Shown here piece by piece: positions 7,028 through 61,737 of a DNA stretch of 64,000 nucleotides. A model generated the notes under the pieces. It saw only the letters and a list, made by a program, of their open reading frames with translations. It was not told the origin of the DNA and did not search any database. The stretch spans positions 7,647-71,646 of the forward strand of contig QZKG01000067.1 of the NCBI GenBank assembly GCA_003599855.1, given 5' to 3'. Numbering within the stretch: the first letter of the stretch is position 1; each line of letters opens with the position of its first letter. The DNA is from Gaiellales bacterium. GTDB taxonomy: Bacteria; Actinomycetota; Thermoleophilia; BMS3ABIN01. A program made the position numbers and the translations under genes.

Positions 7028-7211
7028 GTTACCTCCCTCGTCACATAAAACACACTGACCCGGTCTCCGGCCGCCCGTCTTCCGTTTTCCCCCATCACCG
7101 GCATCCGGCTGTTGGTAAAAAATCTACCCAACTTGCGCGCGCAATATAATCGGGGGAATGTACCAAAGGGCTAAGGTTTAGTGCCTAGCGGCTATGGGGG
7201 TTTTCCGCAAT

Positions 7212-7315
7212 GGCGTAAGGCAATACCCTAGGGGGTACTAAGGCGTTTCACTGAGTAATCCATGCAGGCGATCCTCCCGCTTCACCCGTTAATCGCCTGC
7301 CGATAACCTTACGCC
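7212..7315. ncRNA. candidate structured RNA / cis-regulatory element (nested perfect helices)
   Basis: Outer 9-bp helix ggcgtaagg (7212-7220) pairs with ccttacgcc (7307-7315). Inner 9-bp helix gcaggcgat (7264-7272) pairs with atcgcctgc (7292-7300). A small hairpin taccc-tagg-gggta lies at 7224-7238. The element sits in a 660-nt ORF-free region upstream of the nrfD-like operon; strand is unknown. Confidence 0.35.
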
Positions 7316-8017
7316 CGACTCGCGGATACAGTTTACTACCTGCAATTGAAGTACTTTTACTGGCAGCCGGACGGCGCCACGACGCATATTGTAATTGGTG
7401 TTATCGTGGTGATAATGAATATTATTACGGTCATGAAAGCTATTATCTTCGCCTTGATTGTGATCCTTTTCTCAGATTTTGACGCTGCAACGTGACAAAG
7501 ACTATCGTTTCGGTATTGTGTGCCGTTTGTATTATATCAATTGATATAGAATTATATATATAGCTTAATCAATATCTGTTTTATGGTGCTCTAATGAATA
7601 TCGACAGTAATTCGACGGCGCTCTCGTGAGTTGCCGATTGGCAATCAGCTGCGCTCACTCACCATCCTGCCGCACTGTGCCAGTGACGCCATCACCCACT
7701 GCGTGTCATGCGGGAGCCGTGCTGGCGCTGATCGGTGACGGGCGCTGTTGCAGCACTATTTTTGCTTGACATATTAAATAAAGCTGGCGAAAGCAGGACG
7801 CTGCCGTGATGAGCAGCAATTTTCCTTGGAGACATGAAGCTGGTGACTGGATGGAAATGATCCGGTGGTTGCTTGACATCCGTGGCCGCAGGCGCGGCCG
7901 CAAACTGGCAAGTCATGTTCGTACGGAGTGTATTGGAGACAGAGCCATTCAGGGGTTTAAAAAAGCGCCGCGGTATTTCACCGCGGCGCCACAATGATTC
8001 CTGCTTTCCTCCCCGTA

Positions 8018-8224
8018 TCAGGAAGCCAGCCTCTCAGCGCTGTCGGTCTCCCACTCGCCTGAGTTCACTCGCTTATCAAAGCAGTTCCTGCAAACGGACT
8101 TGCCGCTGCCGTCCTCGAAACATACATGATAGGCTGCCGTCCCTTCGCAGCCGGGCAGCTTCTCCGTACAGCTGCATTTCTCTTCGACGGGAAAATTACT
8201 GGTGTACTTCACTGTCTTGAGCAT
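8018..8224 (-). CDS. small Cys-rich putative metal-binding protein (paralog A)
   Basis: 68 aa; the motif C..KLPGCE...HVCFEDGSGKSVCRNCFDKRVNSGEW is shared with the ORF at 10211..10429. An SD-like aaagggg precedes the ATG. Confidence 0.55.
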   Translation of the reverse strand: MLKTVKYTSNFPVEEKCSCTEKLPGCEGTAAYHVCFEDGSGKSVCRNCFDKRVNSGEWETDSAERLAS

Positions 8225-8431
8225 TTCGCACCCCTTTGCATCGTTTTACATGTACGCCGGCGTGACCGCGCATGCCGGTCTTTCGCAAATTTAGACGCAA
8301 TATACCCCTGGGGGTTTCATCTTCATGGTTGTGGCCTGACGAATTGCCGGCGTGTCGCCGCTACCCTTTTATCCCGATCGGATGTATAAATCAGATGACG
8401 GCTGGCTTACCCGATCGAGGAAACGGAGGGC

Positions 8432-9409
8432 TTGATGAGGGCCATTATCTATCTGCCGCAGGATGGCGCCGCCAGGGAGGTGCCTGTCAGGGAGGCGCTG
8501 GAAGGCCGCCGGAATGCGGGCGCTCTGCTCTGGCTGGATTGCGGCCATCTGGGAGAGGATGACATGGCACTGCTCAGCGAGGAGTTCGGTTTTCACGAGC
8601 TGGCTCTCGAGGACGCCTTCAAACATCACGAGCAGCGACCCAAGGTCGAAGAGTACGATGACCATTTCTTCCTGGTCATGCACTCGCTCTCAGCCAGGCC
8701 CCAGGGCCAGTCGCTGACGTTCGAAAGGAGCGAGCTCGACCTGTTCGCAGGCGCGGGCTATGTGGTCACGGTCCACCCGGGCGAAGTGCCGGAGCTGGAG
8801 ACCGTCTGGACGGACTCGCTCAAGCGGCCGTCGCTCATGAGCAACGGCTCCGATCGCCTGACCTACCACCTGCTGGACCGGGTAGTGGACAATTACCTGG
8901 AGGCTGTCGACCGGATCGAGGACGTCATCGACTACCTGGAAGACCGCGCAGTCGATGAGAAAGCAAGCGAAGAGGGAATCCGGGAGATCTTCGGCTTCAA
9001 GCGCGAGCTCATCCGCTTCCGCAAGACCAGCGGTCCCCTGCGCGACGCCATCGGCGAACTGACCTCCCTGGACTTCCCCGTAGTAAGCGCGGAAACGATG
9101 CCCTACCTGCGCGACGTTTACGACCACCTAATCCGGCTGGCCGACATGCTCGACACCTACCGGGACATCCTCGGCGGCGCCCTCGACGTCCACCTCGCGG
9201 CTGTGTCCAACCGCCTGAACGAGATCATGAAGCGGCTGACCCTGGTAGCCACCGTCTTCATGCCGCTGACTTTCATCACCGGTTTCTTCGGGATGAACTT
9301 CCTGGAGCTGCCCTTCAGCAGCGCCCTCTGGTTCTGGGGCAGCCTTGTGGTGATGGCCCTGACCGCCTTCTGGATGGTTGATTACTTCCGGCGCAATCAC
9401 TGGCTGTAA
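8432..9409 (+). CDS. corA: magnesium/cobalt transporter CorA
   Basis: The C-terminal two TM helices carry the GMN signature (FFGMNF) and end in YFRRNHWL. The cytoplasmic N-domain is acidic. SD is ggaaacggaggg. Confidence 0.85.
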   Translation: MMRAIIYLPQDGAAREVPVREALEGRRNAGALLWLDCGHLGEDDMALLSEEFGFHELALEDAFKHHEQRPKVEEYDDHFFLVMHSLSARPQGQSLTFERSELDLFAGAGYVVTVHPGEVPELETVWTDSLKRPSLMSNGSDRLTYHLLDRVVDNYLEAVDRIEDVIDYLEDRAVDEKASEEGIREIFGFKRELIRFRKTSGPLRDAIGELTSLDFPVVSAETMPYLRDVYDHLIRLADMLDTYRDILGGALDVHLAAVSNRLNEIMKRLTLVATVFMPLTFITGFFGMNFLELPFSSALWFWGSLVVMALTAFWMVDYFRRNHWL

Positions 9410-26418: not shown

Positions 26419-26676
26419 TCAGTCCCCGGGCGGCTCCAGCGGGTCGATGCGGCTGCCCCGGTAGCCCGGCCGGCAGCGCGACAGTCGCCCCAAGGCCTTG
26501 CGGGTCGCCTTGAAGAACCCGTAGGTCTGGTAGGCCTCCAGGGCGTACTGCGAGCAGCACGGCTCGAAGCTGCATCTTGTTCCCAGCTGGCGGCTGACCC
26601 GCGCCCGGTAGGTCTCGATGAAGCGGACGGCGAACCGCGATAGCGCCGATGGCTGTGTTGCGACGTGGCCGCTCAC
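26419..26676 (-). CDS. yidD: membrane protein insertion efficiency factor YidD
   Basis: Conserved motif CSFEPCCSQYALEAYQTYGFFKATRKALGRLSRCRPGYRGSRIDPLEP (compare the CRFxPSCSxYA...RCHPxxxGGxDP hallmark). Confidence 0.8.
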   Translation of the reverse strand: MSGHVATQPSALSRFAVRFIETYRARVSRQLGTRCSFEPCCSQYALEAYQTYGFFKATRKALGRLSRCRPGYRGSRIDPLEPPGD

Positions 26677-27659
26677 TGGTTCTGGCCGCCCTCTTCCGGC
26701 ATGGCCTTGCCCTCTTCCGGCGTGACACCTCCCTCAGAAGCCCAATATTTCAGGATGTCGTTGGCCTTGCGCACCGAGGAGAGATGGGCGAGCGACGGGA
26801 TCACCACGCCGACGGCCAGCCACCCCAGGAGCCAGACCACCAGCAGCGTGATCGTCGGGAAGAACAGGGCGAACTGCTGGGCCAGTACCAGAGTCCCAAG
26901 GCCTGCCAGCAGGGAACCGGTCAGCGAAATAACCGAGAGGTACGGCCGCCAGCGCAGCATGACCGCCGGTCCGCCGACACCGCCGGCGCCCGCCAGCATA
27001 TACGCCCCGGTCGTAAGCAGGGCCAGCGGAGCGAGGGTCAGGCAATGGAGCATTCCCATGTACACGAAAGCCGCGTCCTCGTCGACCTGGGTCGCCTGCG
27101 TCTGGGTCGGCCCCTCGGCTATCCTTCGCGCCAGGCTGGGGGCCTTGTTGCCACTGAAGAGGCCCGCACCGGCTACGCCCGCTACTCCCAGGGCGGTGGC
27201 GGCCGCGCCGCCGATCCCGACCGGCGTCGTCAGCGGATTCTTGCCCGTGACCTTGATATAAGCGGAGCCGCTGCAGGCGCCGGCGCCGTAGGACTCGCCG
27301 GTGACCCGGTACAGCCCGACGCCGTATCTGGAGTACTTGGCGACCGACTCGGTGCCGGACCAGGTGTTGCTGTCGTCGTCCTTCTCGGAGATGGTCCACG
27401 GCGCTCCGCCGATGAACTCCAGCCGCACCTCGTGCCGGCTGATCGTGTCATCGGAAACGACCTCCACATCGATGGCGCCGTTATAGGGCACCTGCAGCGC
27501 GTTCGCCGGCTTTGCCAGCGAATCGGCGCTGACCCCGTTCATCGTGACCGTACATGGCCCGTCGATCTGGGCCGGTGCCGCCGCCGGCAGCGACAGGAGC
27601 AGCGCGGCGGTGAAAACGAGTGTAGCCGCCAGGGATAAAACGACGCGTCTGTGCTGCAT
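26673..27659 (-). CDS. exported/membrane protein, unknown function (N-terminal periplasmic domain + 4-5 TM)
   Basis: Start at the internal ATG with SD ggggaaggtga. Signal peptide MQHRRVVLSLAATLVFTAALLLSLPAAAPAQ, with C-terminal hydrophobic helices. Confidence 0.6.
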   Translation of the reverse strand: MQHRRVVLSLAATLVFTAALLLSLPAAAPAQIDGPCTVTMNGVSADSLAKPANALQVPYNGAIDVEVVSDDTISRHEVRLEFIGGAPWTISEKDDDSNTWSGTESVAKYSRYGVGLYRVTGESYGAGACSGSAYIKVTGKNPLTTPVGIGGAAATALGVAGVAGAGLFSGNKAPSLARRIAEGPTQTQATQVDEDAAFVYMGMLHCLTLAPLALLTTGAYMLAGAGGVGGPAVMLRWRPYLSVISLTGSLLAGLGTLVLAQQFALFFPTITLLVVWLLGWLAVGVVIPSLAHLSSVRKANDILKYWASEGGVTPEEGKAMPEEGGQNQ

Positions 27660-27857
27660 GACATCACCTTCCCCGCATGCGAAGTACATTCGTCAGGACG
27701 TCTATATATTCCAGCAGAGGAGGTGGTGTCCTGCGGCGACCGCCATTCCCGGCATCATGCTTTTCCGTCCGAACAGCCTGCTACGCTGGTTGACCCGCCG
27801 CTGAAGCGGGGATGACATGTACCTCAGAGATCAGGTTTGGTAAAGGAGGCAGGTCCC

Positions 27858-29801
27858 ATGCTCACCAAGTGGAGGCTTTCAAACTTCAAATGCTTCAAGC
27901 GTGAACACGAGCTCGAACTCGGGCGGCTGACGCTGATCGCCGGCGCCAACAATGCCGGCAAGAGCATGCTGCTCAAGTCGCTCCTGCTCGTCTGCCAGTC
28001 GATGTTCCAGAAGGAAGGCAACGCCGACGTCATCGCCAACGGCCACCTGACCCGGCTGGGCCGGTTGGTCGAGCCTGCTTCTGTTGAGCCGGGGATCGTG
28101 CACGATGCAAGCATGCGCATCGGGTGGGAGTGGCGCCGGGGAAGGCTGGAAGGCGTCCCCGAGCCGGAAGTCTACGATAACCACGGCAACGGCGACCGCA
28201 TCCGCCACAGGAAGGGCGGCCTCGACCTGGACATCGGGTGCGACATCATGATCACGTCGGTGTCTAAGCTGCTGGGACCGTTCACGGTAGCCTCACCGCC
28301 GAGGATAAGCAGCTTCTCGGTCTGGACCGAGCGTCACGGCGATGAGCGGGTTTCACTGTCCGCCTCCAATGATGAGGAAGAGCCCGCAGATGAATCCTGC
28401 CCGGGCTGCGGGCACGCCGGCTGTGACGGCTTGCATGAGGGAGATGCCAGGGGGATGCGGATCACCTGCATCGACGAAAGGTCGGCAGCCGAGCTCGACG
28501 ATGATTTCATCGAGGGAGAGCTTTGCGGCTGCGATTTCCAGGGGCTCCTGCCGGCCGGGCTGCGCGTCCGCTTCGACCGGCGCAAGCAGGCGGCGGCAAT
28601 CGTCGAGCTGGCGCTCCTCAGGGTCGCGGACCCCGCGCTTGCCTATAACCTGCGGCGTATGTCGCGGCACCTGCGCGAACCAATAGAAATACCCGCCGGC
28701 GTCATCGACCGGATCGCGGCTGCCGCCGGGGTCGAGTTTCGCAGGGACGGCACAACGTCTGGAGTGATCAGCATCCTGGAATGGCACCGCGCTGTGGAAC
28801 AGCTCGAAGGCAGCGACCGCGAGGCGCTAGAAGCAGCGACCCGCAGGCTGTTCGCAGATGAGGCCGAGTGGGGCGCCATCGTCTCCGAGATCGAGGCCTC
28901 GGAGGGCCGCGAACTCGAAGAAGACGATGAAACACACCCGCAGATGAGCGATACATCGGTCTGGCTGCCGGGCCCGCTGCGCATGGCGACTGGCTACCTG
29001 AGGGACTACTTCACCAGCATGGTGAAGTACATCGGCCCGCTGAGGCAGTCTCCGCGGCTTTACCACGAGCTGCCGGAACCGGCTGCGGACGGGTATGTCG
29101 GCTCCATGGGCGAGCATGCCATCGCCATCCTCGGCCGCAACCTGGACAGGCGGGTGACGTTCATGCCGCCGGAGAACTTCGACCACCCCGGGATCAAGAT
29201 GGCGGCTAAGGTCACGACGCTGCGCGAGGCGGTGTCGGCATGGCTGGTTCACTTCGGCATGGGAGAGCTGGTCGCGGCTTTCGACGCCGGCAAGCCGGGG
29301 TACGGGTTCCTGCTCAGGTTGCCCGGCTCACGCATGCTGCGCGACCCTGAGAGCGTGGGCGTCGGCATCAGCCAGTTGCTGCCAGTGCTGGTGATGTGCC
29401 TGCTGGCCGAAGAGCACTCGACGCTCATCATCGAGCAGCCGGAGCTGCACCTGCACCCCGGGGCGCAGTCGAAGCTGGGAGATTTCTTCCTGTCGATGGC
29501 GCTCCTGAACAGGCAGTGCATCCTCGAGACGCACAGCGAACACCTGATGGAGCGGGTCAACTACCGCGTGGCGGCCAGCAACGACGCGCTTGTGCCCCTG
29601 GTGAAGAACTATTTCGTCGAGGCGGTCGAGGACGGCTCGGTAGTCGACGAGGCGCCGCTGAACCGCCATCGCAACATCGTCCACTGGCCGGAGGGGTTCT
29701 ACGACGAGGTGCACCGGCAGGAAGAGGCGCTGCTGCGGGTCAGGACCGGCTACGAGCCCGATGCGCTGGCCGGCGAGCACGATCCGGTGAGGAATAACTG
29801 A
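27858..29801 (+). CDS. OLD/ABC-type AAA ATPase (AAA_15/AAA_21-like with DUF3696-like C-terminus) carrying an inserted Cys-cluster region
   Basis: Strong SD aaaggagg 8 nt before the ATG at 27858. N-terminal KWRLSNFKCFK, Walker A GANNAGKS, signature YIGPLRQSPRLYHE, Walker B/D-loop LIIEQPELHLHP and H-loop ETHSEHL. A 350-aa insert between Walker A and IGPLR contains CPGCGHAGCDG...CGCDF. Confidence 0.75.
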   Translation: MLTKWRLSNFKCFKREHELELGRLTLIAGANNAGKSMLLKSLLLVCQSMFQKEGNADVIANGHLTRLGRLVEPASVEPGIVHDASMRIGWEWRRGRLEGVPEPEVYDNHGNGDRIRHRKGGLDLDIGCDIMITSVSKLLGPFTVASPPRISSFSVWTERHGDERVSLSASNDEEEPADESCPGCGHAGCDGLHEGDARGMRITCIDERSAAELDDDFIEGELCGCDFQGLLPAGLRVRFDRRKQAAAIVELALLRVADPALAYNLRRMSRHLREPIEIPAGVIDRIAAAAGVEFRRDGTTSGVISILEWHRAVEQLEGSDREALEAATRRLFADEAEWGAIVSEIEASEGRELEEDDETHPQMSDTSVWLPGPLRMATGYLRDYFTSMVKYIGPLRQSPRLYHELPEPAADGYVGSMGEHAIAILGRNLDRRVTFMPPENFDHPGIKMAAKVTTLREAVSAWLVHFGMGELVAAFDAGKPGYGFLLRLPGSRMLRDPESVGVGISQLLPVLVMCLLAEEHSTLIIEQPELHLHPGAQSKLGDFFLSMALLNRQCILETHSEHLMERVNYRVAASNDALVPLVKNYFVEAVEDGSVVDEAPLNRHRNIVHWPEGFYDEVHRQEEALLRVRTGYEPDALAGEHDPVRNN

Positions 29802-29833
29802 TCAAATCAAATCGGAGGATGGAGGAAAAGAGG

Positions 29834-30268
29834 ATGAGCCAGGAAGATGCAGCGCTGCGCAAAACGATAAACCGGCGAATCGACGGGATCCAGGAGAGGA
29901 TCGATTCCGGCTTCTTCCTGGAAGAGGCCCTGACAGTCGCTGAGTTCACGGGCGCTGACGTCAAGATACGGCAGCCCCTGGGCGAGAATGTCGAGGCGCT
30001 TCCCGAGAGCGCACCGTTCGTCATCAGCCTGCAGGAGAGCGTGCCGCAAAAGAGAGTTGTCCGTACAGTGTATTCCCGGGAGCTCAGCTGGCTCTTGTTA
30101 GAGCTAGGAGAAGCATTCAGGGAGACGATCGATTACGTGTCCAAGTATGACTTTTTCGGCAGTCTCGCCCAGGCGGCGCTGGATCACCTGGCGGCTGAAG
30201 GGGATGCGGCCGGCAGCAAACCGCTGCTGTTGCACGTCCTGGCCAGGGCGAGGGAGATGGTTGGGTAG
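29834..30268 (+). CDS. hypothetical protein (145 aa), operon partner of the ATPase
   Basis: Begins 32 nt after the ATPase stop with SD ggaggaaaagagg. Predicted to be alpha-helical, with no motif I recognise. Followed by a terminator-like hairpin. Confidence 0.6.
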   Translation: MSQEDAALRKTINRRIDGIQERIDSGFFLEEALTVAEFTGADVKIRQPLGENVEALPESAPFVISLQESVPQKRVVRTVYSRELSWLLLELGEAFRETIDYVSKYDFFGSLAQAALDHLAAEGDAAGSKPLLLHVLARAREMVG

Positions 30269-30269
30269 G

Positions 30270-30292
30270 AACAGGTCGCCTGTTTTATAAAT
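30270..30292 (+). terminator. rho-independent terminator-like hairpin after the ATPase/small-protein pair
   Basis: The stem aacagg-tcg-cctgtt is followed by ttataaat, immediately after the TAG at 30266-30268. Confidence 0.4.
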
Positions 30293-30340
30293 GCAGATAG
30301 TCATATAGACCCGTTTGCGTATGGCTGATAGTATTTGAAC

Positions 30341-32272
30341 ATGTCTAATGAATCCACTCAATCGGGCTGGAGCTCCGACTTTCCCACATTCCGCGACAGC
30401 CAGCCTTATCGGATACGAGAAGATCTTCATTCTTTTGTATCCGACGTTAGCCCCGAACAGATTCGAGCGTGGGATGAGTCTATCCCTCTATTGCAAAATG
30501 AGGTGGATGAAGTATTGCAAACAACTGATTTAGCGCAGAAATACGACACAATTTTAGAGTACGAACTACCCATGGAGTCCCGCCGCACGGATGCCATATT
30601 TCTGACCTCAGCCGGCGTTATCGTTATCGAGCTGAAGGGAAAAAGCAACCCCTCCCGGGCTGATATTGACCAGGCGGCTGCGTATGGACGCGACCTTCGC
30701 TGCTATCATCGCGAATGTCATAACCGACCTGTCCATGCAGTTCTCGTTCCGACGAGGGCGAAGGGTTATATGTTTCAGAAGTCGGGCGTTCATGTGCTTG
30801 GTCCTGATGTCATCGATAAGTTCGTGGACGATATTAGAATGAAGGGTGGGCAAGAACCAATCGACAGGAATTCATTTTTATCGGCAGATGCATATTGCCC
30901 TCTCCCAACAATAGTGGAAGCTGCACGCGAACTGATGATGTCTGGATCGATACGAACAATTCACAGGGCTCGAGCAGCTACTGAGCCGGCTCTTGAAGAA
31001 ATATCCCGAATCATTCATGAAGCAGCCTTGACCAAAACACGTCGCTTGGTTCTGCTAACTGGTGTTCCGGGTGCCGGGAAGACGCTTGTCGGTCTACAAG
31101 TCGTCCACGCTCACTTCTTGGATGACCTGTCCATCCCCAGGGCTGATGGAAATAGCGGCACACCGGCAGTTTATTTGTCTGGCAACGGCCCCTTAGTACA
31201 AGTTCTCCAATATGAGCTGAAAAGTGCTGGAGGCGGCGGTCGTACCTTTGTAAGAGGAGTTAAAGACTATGTGAAACGATATTCAACCAGGGCTGACCTG
31301 GTTCCGCCGGAGCACGTATTGGTTTTTGATGAAGCCCAAAGGGCTTTTGACGCTGACCAGGTACGAGAGAAGCATAGCAATACTCCCGGATTTGAAGGCG
31401 GAAAATCTGAGCCAGAACACTTCATCGAGTTTGCCGAAAGAATCCCGGAGTGGTGTGTGGTAGTTGGACTTATTGGTGGTGGTCAAGAAATTCACATTGG
31501 AGAGGAAGCCGGAATCGTTCAATGGCTGCAGGCAATTGAAGGATCGGCAGATCCCTCTGCGTGGACCATCCACATGCCTCCCGAAGCCAAACCTGCCTTC
31601 GCTGATTCCCAGGTTAAACAAACTGCATCACCGGCTTTGAATTTAGATACGGAAATCCGCTTTCATCTGGCTAGCGAGCTTCATGATTTCGTCGCAGACC
31701 TGCTTGATAGTCGCGATATTGAGAGTAATCGGGAGCGTGCTCTCAGACTGGAAGCAGATGGCTATCATCTCAGAATCACGCGAGACTTGAATGTGGCGAA
31801 ATCATATCTAAGGGAGCGCTATGGTGAAGACCCTGACGCACGCTTTGGTCTTATCGCATCTTCTAAGGACAAAGATTTAACCAGATTTGGCATCCTCAAT
31901 GATTTCCAATCGACAAAAAGAGTCAGATTTGGCCCCTGGTACGGAGACAGGGAGGACGACGAGGGCCATTTTTCTTGCCGGCATCTTGATGCATGTATTA
32001 CAGAATTTGGCGCACAGGGGCTAGAGCTTGATGCCGTATTGCTAGCGTGGGGCACGGACTTGCTCAGAGAAGATGGAGCGTGGTCGAACGAAAGAGCTCG
32101 CGGATATCGCAATAGCAGTAGGATAAAAGACGCTTTTCAGCTACGGCTAAATGCTTACCGCGTCCTCCTCACCCGCGGCCGGGACGCAACTGTTGTTTTC
32201 GTGCCACAACTGGAACTACTAGACGATACATTCAATTATCTAGTTGATAGTGGATTCTTACCCCTTGCTTAG
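30341..32272 (+). CDS. PD-(D/E)xK (NERD-like) nuclease domain fused to DUF2075 / Schlafen-group-3-like SF1 helicase ATPase
   Basis: N-terminal nuclease motif RRTDAIFLTSAGVIVIELKGK (D...ExK). Walker A LLTGVPGAGKTLVGL, motif II VLVFDEAQRAF and a motif VI-like VLLTRGRDATVVFV. Visibly lower GC than its neighbours. Confidence 0.8.
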   Translation: MSNESTQSGWSSDFPTFRDSQPYRIREDLHSFVSDVSPEQIRAWDESIPLLQNEVDEVLQTTDLAQKYDTILEYELPMESRRTDAIFLTSAGVIVIELKGKSNPSRADIDQAAAYGRDLRCYHRECHNRPVHAVLVPTRAKGYMFQKSGVHVLGPDVIDKFVDDIRMKGGQEPIDRNSFLSADAYCPLPTIVEAARELMMSGSIRTIHRARAATEPALEEISRIIHEAALTKTRRLVLLTGVPGAGKTLVGLQVVHAHFLDDLSIPRADGNSGTPAVYLSGNGPLVQVLQYELKSAGGGGRTFVRGVKDYVKRYSTRADLVPPEHVLVFDEAQRAFDADQVREKHSNTPGFEGGKSEPEHFIEFAERIPEWCVVVGLIGGGQEIHIGEEAGIVQWLQAIEGSADPSAWTIHMPPEAKPAFADSQVKQTASPALNLDTEIRFHLASELHDFVADLLDSRDIESNRERALRLEADGYHLRITRDLNVAKSYLRERYGEDPDARFGLIASSKDKDLTRFGILNDFQSTKRVRFGPWYGDREDDEGHFSCRHLDACITEFGAQGLELDAVLLAWGTDLLREDGAWSNERARGYRNSSRIKDAFQLRLNAYRVLLTRGRDATVVFVPQLELLDDTFNYLVDSGFLPLA

Positions 32273-32331
32273 TAGGTGAACTTTTATCTCGATGCCTTGA
32301 GCTAAGCCACTGACAATACCTTTTCTACCCC

Positions 32332-33930: not shown

Positions 33931-34200
33931 CTCATACCTCTTTCACTTCGATTGAGTATTCGATGACCTTGCGGGCCTGGCGGCCCTTTCCCATACGCCC
34001 TGGTGCTGCCGGCAACCATAAAGGCGGCTGGCAGTTGCAGCTTCAATTCAAGCGAAGCCGTTACACGACTAATTGAGTTATTTTAGTTCATCCGGGCGGG
34101 CGTGCCTAGCGTTTGCAGGCAAAATGATGCATCGGCACCATGCGGGTTGAACCCTGGGGATTAATCATCAGAGGAGGGTTGGGGGAAATTGGTGGCACCC

Positions 34201-34234
34201 AATAAAGAGAAAGGACCCTCCTCGCAGAGGGCCC
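34201..34234 (-). terminator. rho-independent terminator of the cold-shock gene
   Basis: On the minus-strand transcript, hairpin gggccctc-tgcgag-gagggtcc is followed by uuucucuuuauu, directly after the csp stop at 34269. Confidence 0.6.
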
Positions 34235-34268
34235 TTGTGCGTTGCCTTAGTGCGTTACTCAAGTGCAG

Positions 34269-34472
34269 CTATTCTATCGGCGTCACGTTTGTGGCCTGCG
34301 GGCCCTTGGGGCCTTCGCCGGCTTCGAAAGTCACTTTCTGACCTTCCTTGAGCGTCTTGAAGCCTTCGCCCTTGATCTCAGAAAAGTGCACAAACAGGTC
34401 TTCGCCGCTCTCCTGCTCGATAAAGCCGAAGCCTTTCTGATCGGAGAACCATTTGACTGTTCCTTCTGGCAA
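34269..34472 (-). CDS. csp: cold-shock protein (CspA family)
   Basis: [60 protein letters not shown] carries the RNP1/RNP2 motifs. The likely TTG start gives (M)PEGTVKWF, with GGAGG 7 nt upstream. The ORF track extends it to 34514. Confidence 0.85.
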
Positions 34473-34834
34473 GTTCGTTCCTCCTCTCACCAATTCCGGT
34501 AAGAGCACTCGCATGTGCCGGAAAAGCAGTCAAGTACTTCAAACCTGTCCCCGTCCTCATGATCGCGGGGTCAATGACACTATAGAGTGTAGAAGTGTTA
34601 ATAGCAATGCATTGAACGTCGGGGGCAATTAATTGAAGCAACTCGATACCGCAGGCGACGATGTGGGGTAGGAGCCCCGGCTGGTAAGGTTCACAGGTTT
34701 CAGTACGTCCCCTAATCTCTTCAAATCTCTACATTCCAACCACTCAACCACCAATAAAATACAGGTTTGCTTGATTTCGCGTCAGTTTATCCGATATTAT
34801 CTGAATATCTGATATTCTGATTAACGGACGGTTT

Positions 34835-35185
34835 ATGACAAAGGGCAAGCAATATCCGGACAGGCGCCCTGGAATGGGCGGCGCTTCCATCATCCGCGAG
34901 ACGGGCAAGGTAGGCAAGCGCGGCACGGTAGTCATCGCGGCAGCGCTGAGGCGTCGTTTCGGTCTCGATGAGGGGTCGCTCATCATCGAAGAAGAGACCC
35001 CGGAGGGCGTACTGATCCGCCCGGCGGTCGCCATGCCGGTCGAGATTTACACCACCGAACGGCAGGCGGAGTTCCTGCTCAATAATGCTGTCGATGAGAA
35101 GGATTACCAGCGAGCACGGCGCGCCGTGAAGAAGCTGGGGCTGGACCCTGACGCCATCCCCCACCGCCGTCCCGACAGTGCCTGA
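34835..35185 (+). CDS. vapB: AbrB/MazE-fold antitoxin (VapB-like)
   Basis: Swapped-hairpin motif GKRGTVVIAAALRRRFGLDEGSLIIEEETPEGVLIRP. It overlaps the downstream PIN gene by 8 nt. Confidence 0.7.
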   Translation: MTKGKQYPDRRPGMGGASIIRETGKVGKRGTVVIAAALRRRFGLDEGSLIIEEETPEGVLIRPAVAMPVEIYTTERQAEFLLNNAVDEKDYQRARRAVKKLGLDPDAIPHRRPDSA

Positions 35186-35609
35186 ATCCCCGGACCGGGT
35201 CTTTCTGGACGCAAACGTCCTGTTTTCTGCGGCTTATTCCCCGGGCAGTGGGCTGCATCGGCTCTGGGAGCTGGCGCAGGATGGCAGGATCGAGTTACTG
35301 GCCTCCTCGTATGTAGTCGAAGAGGCGCGACGCAACCTCACATCAGGCTTGCAGATACAACGACTGGAGAAGCTGCTGACCCGGGTGCGGATAAGCGCGT
35401 GTAGAGCGCGTGCGGGAGCGGCTCCAGCGGCTGAAGGTCTTGCGCAAAAGGACCGGCCCTTTCTGCAGGCGGCGCTTGCGATGGACGCTACCCATCTGCT
35501 GACTGGTGACATAGCTCATTTCGGCTCTCTTCTGGGAAAGTGGTTCGAGGGAGTGCTTGTGCTCTTGCCGGGCGACTACCTGAGCAGAACGGGGAAGGGC
35601 GCCAGGTAA
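35178..35609 (+). CDS. vapC: PIN-domain ribonuclease toxin (VapC-like)
   Basis: PIN acidic residues lie in VFLDANVLF, VVEEARRNL and LTGDIAHF. The 143-aa size fits VapC. Confidence 0.75.
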   Translation: MPESPDRVFLDANVLFSAAYSPGSGLHRLWELAQDGRIELLASSYVVEEARRNLTSGLQIQRLEKLLTRVRISACRARAGAAPAAEGLAQKDRPFLQAALAMDATHLLTGDIAHFGSLLGKWFEGVLVLLPGDYLSRTGKGAR

Positions 35610-60842: not shown

Positions 60843-61416
60843 GTGAAGCTCCTGCGTCCTCGCAAATCAGAATAAGTCCATTTATTCCCTGGGGTGGCGA
60901 AAACAGCAACATCAATGCAAGGTCCATCGCGCCCACCACCCTGACGCTGGTGGCCGAGTCGCCCGGAATGACCGCAATCGACGGATTGTAATCATCGGAA
61001 GGAATCCTCTGCTACCCACTAGCGCTTGTCTAATTATAGCGACAGGGGTAAAACCGGACAAGTTCGATTTATCCAGATGAGGCCGAGGAGTGAAAAAACC
61101 AGCATCCGGGTATAAGTTTGATTTGGCACACCCGAAGAATCGGCTTGCATGGGGCGCGGTCAGACTGTTTCAGGAAAAGGTTGAGCCCGTAGGTGGGGGG
61201 AGGCTAAACTCACAACCTACGGGCTCCCTTTTAGGGCGGAGGCATTCGCCTCTTGCCAATGTAGTGGTATTCAATGAATATATCGACTCACCGGAACCAT
61301 CCTTTAGAATAAATATTGGTTTTTTACTTAATTTTGAGATAAATCTTTTTCAGGCAGGTTCTTTACCCGCTGCCAGCAGGCAAAATAGCGGCTGCAGCCC
61401 TACCAGAGGAGGAGAT

Positions 61417-61737
61417 ATGAGCGGCGAAGAGCAGGGTCACGGTGCCCAGGGACCCCAGGTCAAGGTCCAGGTGCCGCCGGAAGTCCAGCGCGGCGTGTAT
61501 GCCAACATGGCGCGGGTCAACCACTCGGAGTTCGAGTTCTCCATCGACTTCGCCAACGCTGATTTTGCCGGCCAGGACGCGGCTGGGAACATACCGGCGA
61601 TAGTAGTCACCCGTGTGATGGTCAGCCATGAGTTCATGCCGCGGCTGCTCGAGGCCCTGCAGGACAACTACAGCCGCTACCTCACACGTCGCGACATCGA
61701 GGGCCTGCCGGAGACGGATGAACCCCTCGGCGGCTAG
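61417..61737 (+). CDS. DUF3467-like small protein
   Basis: The SD gaggaggag precedes MSGEEQ.... The motif VYANMARVNHSEFEFSIDFA is as I recall for DUF3467. The AT-rich upstream part of ORF 61090..61737 is rejected as coding. Confidence 0.55.
   Translation: MSGEEQGHGAQGPQVKVQVPPEVQRGVYANMARVNHSEFEFSIDFANADFAGQDAAGNIPAIVVTRVMVSHEFMPRLLEALQDNYSRYLTRRDIEGLPETDEPLGG

Follow-up and report, generated by a model that had tools for sequence, protein, structure and literature searches.

A low-GC gene in a Gaiellales contig encodes an Nhi-like (PDC-S41) nuclease-helicase, probably a stand-alone anti-phage defence gene

The question raised by the locus in the present study is what a single gene of conspicuously low GC content encodes, and how it came to lie in an otherwise GC-rich contig (QZKG01000067.1) from a Gaiellales bacterium, a member of the Thermoleophilia in the Actinomycetota. 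The gene occupies positions 30341..32272 on the + strand of the 64-kb stretch of this contig that was analyzed, hereafter the window, and encodes a protein of 643 amino acids (aa). The database record of the identical protein, from a Gaiellales metagenome-assembled genome, is labelled 'DUF2075 domain-containing protein'. In our view, the gene is likely to encode a nuclease-helicase of the Nhi-like family, represented in PADLOC by the model PDC-S41, that acts alone against phages, and to have been acquired horizontally from a gene pool of lower GC content.

Membership in the Nhi-like family

Nhi-like was described as system SG141 of Bacillus cereus FSL H8-0482 and was verified as an anti-phage system (Millman et al., 2022); in Bacillus subtilis, it confers protection, from which phages escape when their own DNA methylase is inactivated or lost. 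The verified sequence, as given in the supplement of that study (gene 2729017301), comprises the first 399 residues, and it aligned to aa 9-401 of the window protein with 32% identity (8e-50). A copy on a B. cereus megaplasmid, which is 88% identical to the verified protein, aligned collinearly to aa 9-641 (1e-87). Among the PADLOC models, PDC-S41 (PDLC05014) was the sole one matched over the full length of the window protein (4e-128, aa 8-630 on profile positions 4-632 of 657), with both halves of the protein matching separately, and the verified Nhi-like protein itself matched PDC-S41 with an E-value of 8.8e-76, but the Nhi model with only 6e-7. The window protein aligns with the verified protein and its plasmid copy and shares the PDC-S41 model with the former. 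PDC-S41 and Nhi-like are, therefore, the same family, to which the window gene is added as a new member. The Nhi-like link that had been suggested in the initial annotation was, therefore, correct, and may be made precise as PDC-S41, a name that was not mentioned in the literature that we searched.

The verified and window proteins belong to the same hidden Markov model (HMM) family, align collinearly over their full length, and have in common the nuclease motifs RRxD...ExK...QxxxY and the helicase blocks GxPGxGKT, SGNGPL, DEAQRA, GxGQEIxxGEE, QGLELD, and NAYRVxLTRGR. Each is also encoded by a single gene without a fixed partner. They differ in sequence (~32% identity), in host, which is a high-GC actinobacterium in one case and Bacillus in the other, and in length (643 versus 611 aa), with the differences being mainly located in aa 161-177 and 407-469. 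These two stretches, the latter of which is an accessory insert in the helicase, were also the most variable by column entropy among 57 homologues, and the most variable part consisted of aa 407-431 and 452-469 (31559..31747, + strand). The insert may represent a surface for specificity or for phage counter-defence.

The C-terminal part of the protein (aa 235-622; 31043..32206, + strand) is a DUF2075/Schlafen group-3 helicase domain similar to those of superfamily 1B (SF1B), and matched Pfam PF09848 with an E-value of 1.2e-58. It contains, on the same strand, the Walker A motif GVPGAGKT (aa 241-248; 31061..31084), the Walker B motif DEAQ (aa 330-333; 31328..31339), and a motif VI-like NAYRVLLTRGR (aa 604-614; 32150..32182); the motif VI-like stretch as initially read, LLTRGRDATVVFV, is located at aa 609-621. 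In an alignment of 22 relatives with 38-56% identity, the residues G241, P243, G244, G246, K247, and T248 of Walker A, the stretch D330-E-A-Q-R-A335, and N604, Y606, R607, V608, L609, and R612 of the motif VI-like stretch were invariant. The invariant helicase blocks in these relatives were GxPGxGKT (241-248), SGNGPL (280-285), DEAQRA (330-335), GxGQEIxxGEE (379-389), QGLELD (559-564), WGxD (570-573), and NxYRVLxTR (604-612).

Regarding the N-terminal part, the secondary structure of an AlphaFold2 model and Foldseek comparisons delineated a PD-(D/E)xK nuclease core at aa 68-168 (30542..30844, + strand). The topology of this core is beta-beta-beta-alpha-beta with a long helix before it, giving the order alpha-beta-beta-beta-alpha-beta that is found in PD-(D/E)xK nucleases. 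The catalytic motif D84...E97-x-K99, DAIFLTSAGVIVIELK (aa 84-99; 30590..30637, + strand), is followed in the next helix by Q111xxxY115, and E73, R82, D84, E97, K99, Q111, and Y115 were invariant in the same 22 relatives. In the PD-(D/E)xK superfamily, a QxxxY placed after D...ExK constitutes the RecB/Cas4-type arrangement. Both catalytic centres look intact, and the nuclease, P-loop, DEAQ, and motif VI-like stretches reported in the initial annotation were all present as read, with catalytic positions that are invariant at this level of divergence.

The nuclease had also been called NERD-like. The PD-(D/E)xK fold was borne out, but the likeness to NERD is only a loose one: none of the Pfam families was above threshold in the N-terminal 232 residues, in which NERD and HSDR_N, both PD-(D/E)xK families, were sub-threshold, NERD (PF08378) scored 13.5 bits, short of its cutoff of 22.1, and 7 of 18 homologues matched NERD, again below the threshold (best E 0.016). 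The full-length AlphaFold2 model, constructed from 57 homologues, had a mean predicted local distance difference test score (pLDDT) of 76.7. Its best Foldseek matches among solved structures, which concern the helicase part, were SLFN11 (7zep/7zel) and SLFN14 (9uie), followed by RecD, Upf1, Dna2, and Dda, and all of these SLFN-type and other matches are SF1B-type motors. With the N-terminal model, all top neighbours were PD-(D/E)xK nucleases, namely, Cdn1, Bax1, VC1899, DdmD, Can1/Can2, NucS/EndoMS, R2 endonuclease, and Hjc. The architecture of a nuclease joined to a DUF2075/Schlafen group-3 helicase, as originally proposed, is confirmed by the PF09848 match, and the Foldseek results are in agreement with it. 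Sequence searches of solved structures, with the full protein and with a profile of its N terminus, returned chance-level matches only, and NCBIfam and PHROGs provided no useful match for this gene.

Considering the similarity in names, the relationship with Nhi needs to be specified. Nhi is SERP2475 of Staphylococcus epidermidis, which requires both nuclease and helicase activities, limits the accumulation of phage DNA, and is countered by a phage single-stranded DNA-binding protein (SSB) (Bari et al., 2022); replication intermediates have been implicated in how it tells phage from host DNA. Nhi-like was named for its architectural likeness to Nhi despite the absence of sequence identity (Millman et al., 2022). 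As in the window protein, an N-terminal PD-(D/E)xK domain precedes an SF1B helicase overlapping DUF2075 in one polypeptide of Nhi, and the concept of one enzyme that is sensor and effector and limits phage DNA accumulation is also alike, whereas the escape routes of phages differ: SSB in the case of Nhi, and DNA methylase loss in that of Nhi-like. The Nhi model (PDLC02372) matched the window protein with E = 0.05 over aa 226-255 only, a stretch of 30 residues confined to the P-loop, and membership in Nhi proper was, therefore, rejected.

A strict identity as a Schlafen protein was also rejected. The C-terminal helicases of Schlafen group III (SLFN5/11/13/14) belong to the same Pfam family, PF09848, SLFN11 and SLFN14 were the best structural matches, and these proteins resemble Nhi-like in being antiviral or genome-guarding and in pairing a nuclease with a PF09848 motor. 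However, the N terminus of the window protein is a PD-(D/E)xK domain of the DNA type, whereas Schlafen group III has an AlbA_2-like tRNA-cleaving core, and no Pfam match to this AlbA_2-type core was found in the window protein. In the accessible portions of the 2025-2026 reports on bacterial Schlafen defence proteins, it is the Schlafen RNase core that is shared, not the PF09848 helicase. A PD-(D/E)xK nuclease coupled with an ATP-driven DNA motor is also found in DdmD, Bax1-XPB, Dna2, and Hachiman HamAB; DdmD and Bax1 are structurally close to the window N-terminal domain and Dna2 is close to its helicase, but the helicase families and domain orders in these systems are different. None of their models reached E <= 0.01 in the PADLOC scan or was among the matches listed at E <= 10. 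Of the relatives that had been put forward for comparison, Nhi-like (PDC-S41) and SLFN were accordingly found, but Hachiman was not at that threshold.

Foreign composition and allele replacement

The GC content of the gene was 0.499, as opposed to 0.633 +/- 0.035 in segments of the same size elsewhere in the window (z = -3.8), and the lowest-GC segments of this size in the whole 64 kb fall on the gene. The GC content at third codon positions (GC3) was 0.457, while that of 40 other open reading frames (ORFs) in the window was 0.821 +/- 0.067 (z = -5.4). The log-likelihood per codon of its synonymous codon choice under the rest of the window deviated to a similar extent (z = -5.35), making this gene the most deviant ORF. 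The initial estimate of ~50% GC against ~65% in the surroundings was confirmed by these values, as was the expected deviation in codon usage. The low-GC block (~30286-32331) coincides exactly with the leader, the coding sequence (CDS), and the 3' spacer. No tRNA was found in the 64-kb window, no integrase, transposase, or tRNA was seen near the gene, and the window had no Rfam match at the gathering score.

The ORF, which ends at 32272, may start with TTG at 30335 or ATG at 30341. The latter is favoured because the two closest homologues begin with MSNE... at the equivalent ATG. The spacer between the upstream ORF and this ATG is 72 nt long with a GC content of 0.40, which decreases to 0.36 past a small hairpin, in accordance with the AT-rich leader of ~70 nt noted in the initial annotation. 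The hairpin, GGAACAGG-UCG-CCUGUUUU (30268..30286, + strand), begins on the final base of the stop codon of the preceding ORF and consists of 8 pairs including two G-U pairs. It had been regarded as terminator-like, and at most it is a weak terminator candidate: its folding energy of -7.5 kcal/mol was equalled by 17 of 200 shuffled sequences, the folding of the whole spacer was no more stable than that of shuffles (z = 0.11), and a consensus terminator scan called none between the genes. The hairpin itself exists, but its reading as a terminator lacks statistical support and was set aside on these grounds.

The leader beyond the hairpin (30286..30340, + strand; GC 0.36) contains an extended -10-like element, TGATAGTAT, at 30326-30334, 6 nt ahead of the ATG. 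The arrangement TGnTA(A/G)TAT, 6 nt, and ATG is kept in the window (30325-30343) and at three homologous loci (L001, L002, and L013). No Shine-Dalgarno sequence was visible in the leader, and the Rfam scan of the leader (E <= 1) gave a chance-level match only (E 0.53). Leaderless mRNAs are a common arrangement in Actinomycetota. TGnTA(A/G)TAT may be the extended -10 element of a leaderless mRNA, and we regard it as a candidate promoter.

Two Thermoleophilia contigs (L001 and L013) carry proteins 83-85% identical to the window protein in the same slot, by genes for Gmad2, a PAS histidine kinase, and a small ORF. L001 and L013 are closely related to each other. Their flanking genes are 87-97% identical, with an identity of 0.77-0.94 at 4-fold sites, and the leader together with the first ~60 nt of the CDS (L001:822-1000 and its equivalent in L013) is 93-97% identical, whereas the rest of the CDS is only ~70% identical and its 4-fold sites are saturated (0.30). 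The breakpoints of replacement lie at approximately codon 20 and in the 3' spacer. Furthermore, the allele in the window is nearer to that of L013 than the L001 allele is, while the relationships of the flanks are the reverse. Since the flanks and leader are nearly identical in L001 and L013, the body of the CDS is diverged, and the tree of the gene disagrees with that of its flanks, the simplest reading is that the coding body has been repeatedly replaced by recombination from a diverged, AT-richer pool of alleles. The horizontal acquisition proposed in the initial annotation is backed by the base composition and by this conflict between trees in syntenic relatives. Long residence without amelioration as the sole cause of the low GC content was rejected because of the same conflict and the sharpness of the breakpoints. 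The three alleles have a GC3 of 0.43-0.46 and retain 83-85% amino acid identity despite saturated synonymous sites, which points to purifying selection.

These data also allow for a bolder interpretation, which we consider unlikely but not negligible as a whole. The slot adjacent to Gmad2 may be a fixed socket for Nhi-like alleles, where recombination would be anchored upstream on the conserved leaderless promoter and the initial ~20 codons, and coding bodies of deep divergence would be exchanged from a common pool. Persistent AT-richness (GC3 of 0.43-0.46 in hosts of ~0.8) may then be functional rather than the mere footprint of recent transfer; for instance, a nuclease-helicase that is dangerous to the cell could in this way remain silenced, or be translated poorly, as long as there is no infection. 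As a separate element of this joint interpretation, the family may comprise translocating, modification-dependent (type IV-like) restriction enzymes.

Several other features were noted around the slot. In L013, a low-GC island (L013:405-4032) reaches 4 kb or more upstream from the Nhi-like gene and contains three paralogous proteins of ~320 aa without a Pfam match and a zinc-ribbon/TerB protein (GC 0.43-0.47); a low-GC acetyltransferase is present at this position in L001. Between the Nhi-like gene and Gmad2 in the window, a second lower-GC patch (34001-35000, GC 0.525) contains a MazE/AbrB-type antitoxin gene (34835..35185, + strand), which overlaps a PIN_3 toxin gene (35178..35609, + strand) by 8 nt, and an adjoining cold-shock protein gene (34269-34514, - strand). 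The equivalent interval in L001 and L013 is occupied by other genes, namely, those for a NERD-UvrD helicase and a GGDEF protein.

Genomic contexts and rival explanations

The family is large, with more than 8000 clusters at 90% identity being retrieved, and its relatives occur in at least 584 species representatives of many phyla, including archaea (Bathyarchaeia and Methanobrevibacter). Proteins labelled Planctomycetes, Gemmatimonadaceae, and Actinobacteria share ~65% identity. The N-terminal domain is almost confined to proteins with the nuclease-helicase architecture of ~640 aa. In a few homologues, N- or C-terminal extensions of 180-260 aa, which may be added sensor domains, were observed, as in P0127 (912 aa), P0160 (844 aa), and P0164 (823 aa); P0160 showed a faint DUF4145 match only. 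The 260-aa C-terminal extension of P0127 was considered as a reader of modified bases for methylation sensing and was dropped because Pfam and PDB sequence searches were empty.

The nine annotated contexts of homologues all differed, often including toxin-antitoxin or defence genes: HigB, AbiEii/AbiEi, ParE/Phd, Uma2, HNH, a PLD-MZB-helicase cluster, a NERD-UvrD helicase, and an insertion sequence (IS) element were among the neighbours. At the loci of 32 further species, the 127 nearest ORFs included PADLOC type IV restriction enzymes, PbeA, PsyrT, DpdF, BrxH, and mad2, and no neighbour family was present at more than three of the 32 loci. The comparison of neighbourhoods called for in the initial annotation, thus, revealed variable contexts of an accessory type, and supports the view that the gene has no conserved or obligatory partner and is stand-alone and accessory in nature. 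Across 58 loci, the gene was on average 3 GC points below its flanks, and more than 5 points lower at 22 of them; more distant homologues often match the GC content of their hosts, and one homologue with 71% identity resides in a genome of 40% GC.

Immediately upstream, an ABC-type ATPase of ~650 aa with a DUF3696 tail (27837..29801, + strand; Pfam AAA_15, AAA_21, and DUF3696) resembles NsnB (PADLOC, 1.3e-59) and is followed by an ORF of 149 aa (29819..30268, + strand). What had been described as an ATPase pair is, therefore, one ATPase and an orphan ORF, which had no match in Pfam, PADLOC, NCBIfam, or PHROGs and only four homologues. The three genes are co-oriented and tightly spaced (gaps of 17 and 72 nt), the DUF3696 tail binds effectors in Menshen models, and Menshen effectors are known to be shuffled, so the Nhi-like gene could in principle be the effector of a Menshen-like multi-gene system in place of the usual NsnC. 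We consider this to be very unlikely. The GC3 values are discordant (0.84, host-like, in the ATPase, 0.75 in the 149-aa ORF, and 0.46 in the gene), and the three did not arrive together; L001 and L013 have the Nhi-like gene without the ATPase module, and an NsnB-like ATPase adjoined none of the homologues in the nine annotated contexts and was not among the families listed at the 32 loci. Moreover, Menshen NsnA is a sensor composed of ParB-DUF262 and ParBDB, and no DUF262 was found in the upstream ORFs, which encode a membrane protein with a zinc ribbon and, on the - strand, another membrane protein. In Menshen, NsnC combines an inactive PIN domain with a nuclease effector; the 149-aa ORF matched no profile, and the Nhi-like protein has no PIN-like N terminus. 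The verified homologue functions as a single gene. The 149-aa ORF was also rejected as a conserved partner of the ATPase because, in the two readable contexts, its homologues lie beside unrelated genes and not beside NsnB-like ATPases. The ATPase and 149-aa ORF are, therefore, judged to be independent of the Nhi-like gene, and of the two possibilities left in the initial annotation, action alone is favoured over a partnership with the ATPase.

The remaining alternatives concern the role of the gene rather than its partners. Its fold resembles RecD, Dna2, and Upf1, one homologue (L010) resides among ordinary cell-envelope and DNA-processing genes, and the same slot is occupied in three related genomes, as might be expected if it were a housekeeping helicase-nuclease for DNA repair or replication in the manner of Dna2, AddAB, or RecD. 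This is highly unlikely in view of the foreign codon usage (z = -5.35), the patchy distribution over phyla with ~65% identity between them, the variable contexts rich in toxin-antitoxin and defence genes, the allele swaps between close relatives, and the experimental verification of a family member as a defence gene. The low-GC composition would also be consistent with cargo of a mobile element that serves the element, by excluding competitors or in replication, rather than the host; homologues are found on 47 plasmids of the Bacillus cereus group, most of the listed ones being several hundred kb in size, and on a single 12.7-kb contig labelled as phage, and the L011 copy adjoins an IS transposase. 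However, with neither an integrase or transposase nor a tRNA near the gene in the window, a foreign block limited to one gene and its spacers, and no meaningful PHROG match, we regard this as quite improbable, and the exclusion of foreign DNA would be the same biochemical act in either role, such that the two readings overlap. The possibility that the gene is a decaying remnant without a current function, for which it may be argued that codons rare for the host could limit expression, is hardly credible because the 643-aa ORF is intact, all catalytic and nucleotide-binding residues are conserved, and the three syntenic alleles are under strong purifying selection.

A stand-alone, horizontally acquired Nhi-like defence gene, thus, remains the explanation that we prefer, and several points weigh against it. 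The verified Bacillus protein is just 32% identical to the window protein, and no mechanism for Nhi-like itself was found in the literature searched, while the model of motor-nuclease coupling is taken from Nhi, with which no homology is demonstrable outside the P-loop. The pLDDT of the N-terminal model was 68, and its Foldseek E-values were marginal (2e-3 at best). The survey of 32 loci had no matched control, such that the enrichment of defence genes is qualitative, and some homologues, such as that of L010, are found among ordinary genes.

Regarding other parts of the window, the ~650-aa length of the ATPase exceeds the ~350-400 aa of the usual NsnB and has an insert of ~300 aa that separates the Walker A region from the C-terminal half, and only four weak matches to it were detected among 5.8 billion proteins; with the 149-aa ORF, it may constitute a degenerate or novel two-gene module. 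The + strand ORF at 26649..27638 is probably spurious, as the overlapping - strand membrane-protein ORF has a host-like GC3. Two further spots are of note. A CorA Mg2+ transporter gene (8432..9409) is immediately preceded by ~1.4 kb (7030-8430; GC ~0.50) in which no ORF exceeds 115 aa and Rfam gave no convincing match; this stretch may be either another foreign insert or an extended leader with a regulatory role. The gene for a DUF3467 protein (61090-61737, + strand; GC3 0.625) is second only to the Nhi-like gene in how far its codon usage deviates within the window, and may have been imported.

Proposed mode of action and significance

In the mode of action that we propose for the Nhi-like protein of the window, a single polypeptide would function as both sensor and effector. 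The C-terminal DUF2075 motor of the SF1B type would bind and hydrolyze ATP via K247, D330/E331, and R607/R612, and translocate along or unwind DNA, thereby feeding it to the N-terminal metal-dependent PD-(D/E)xK nuclease (D84, E97, and K99, with E73 and the Q111xxxY115 helix). Degradation of the phage DNA by this nuclease would block the accumulation of the phage genome, and protection of the Gaiellales host against phages would be the outcome. The discrimination of phage from host is probably based on a feature of phage DNA, such as methylation or replication structures. By analogy with the escape of phages from the verified Bacillus system, methylation may be the trigger for this particular protein, a suggestion that we make tentatively and with some doubt. 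The gene's own AT-rich leader probably drives its transcription, and the mRNA may be leaderless; the protein would have no need of the neighbouring ATPase.

As a known kind of defence gene, the locus is in itself ordinary, and what the present study adds is the equivalence of PDC-S41 and Nhi-like, the breadth of the family, and a mapped case of allele replacement. The label 'DUF2075 domain-containing protein' may be replaced by that of a named member of an experimentally validated single-gene defence family, and the equivalence upgrades thousands of candidate calls in PADLOC. The large size of the family, its distribution across domains of life, and the relatedness of its motor domain to human antiviral proteins of the Schlafen type make it a good target for biochemistry. 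The unusual point, as far as may be judged from comparisons of sequences, is that related genomes appear to have swapped very different AT-rich versions of the gene into the same chromosomal slot. Taken together with the mapped breakpoints, the three syntenic Thermoleophilia genomes provide a clean natural example of the replacement of defence-gene alleles, which may be used in investigations on the turnover of defence repertoires in uncultured Actinomycetota.

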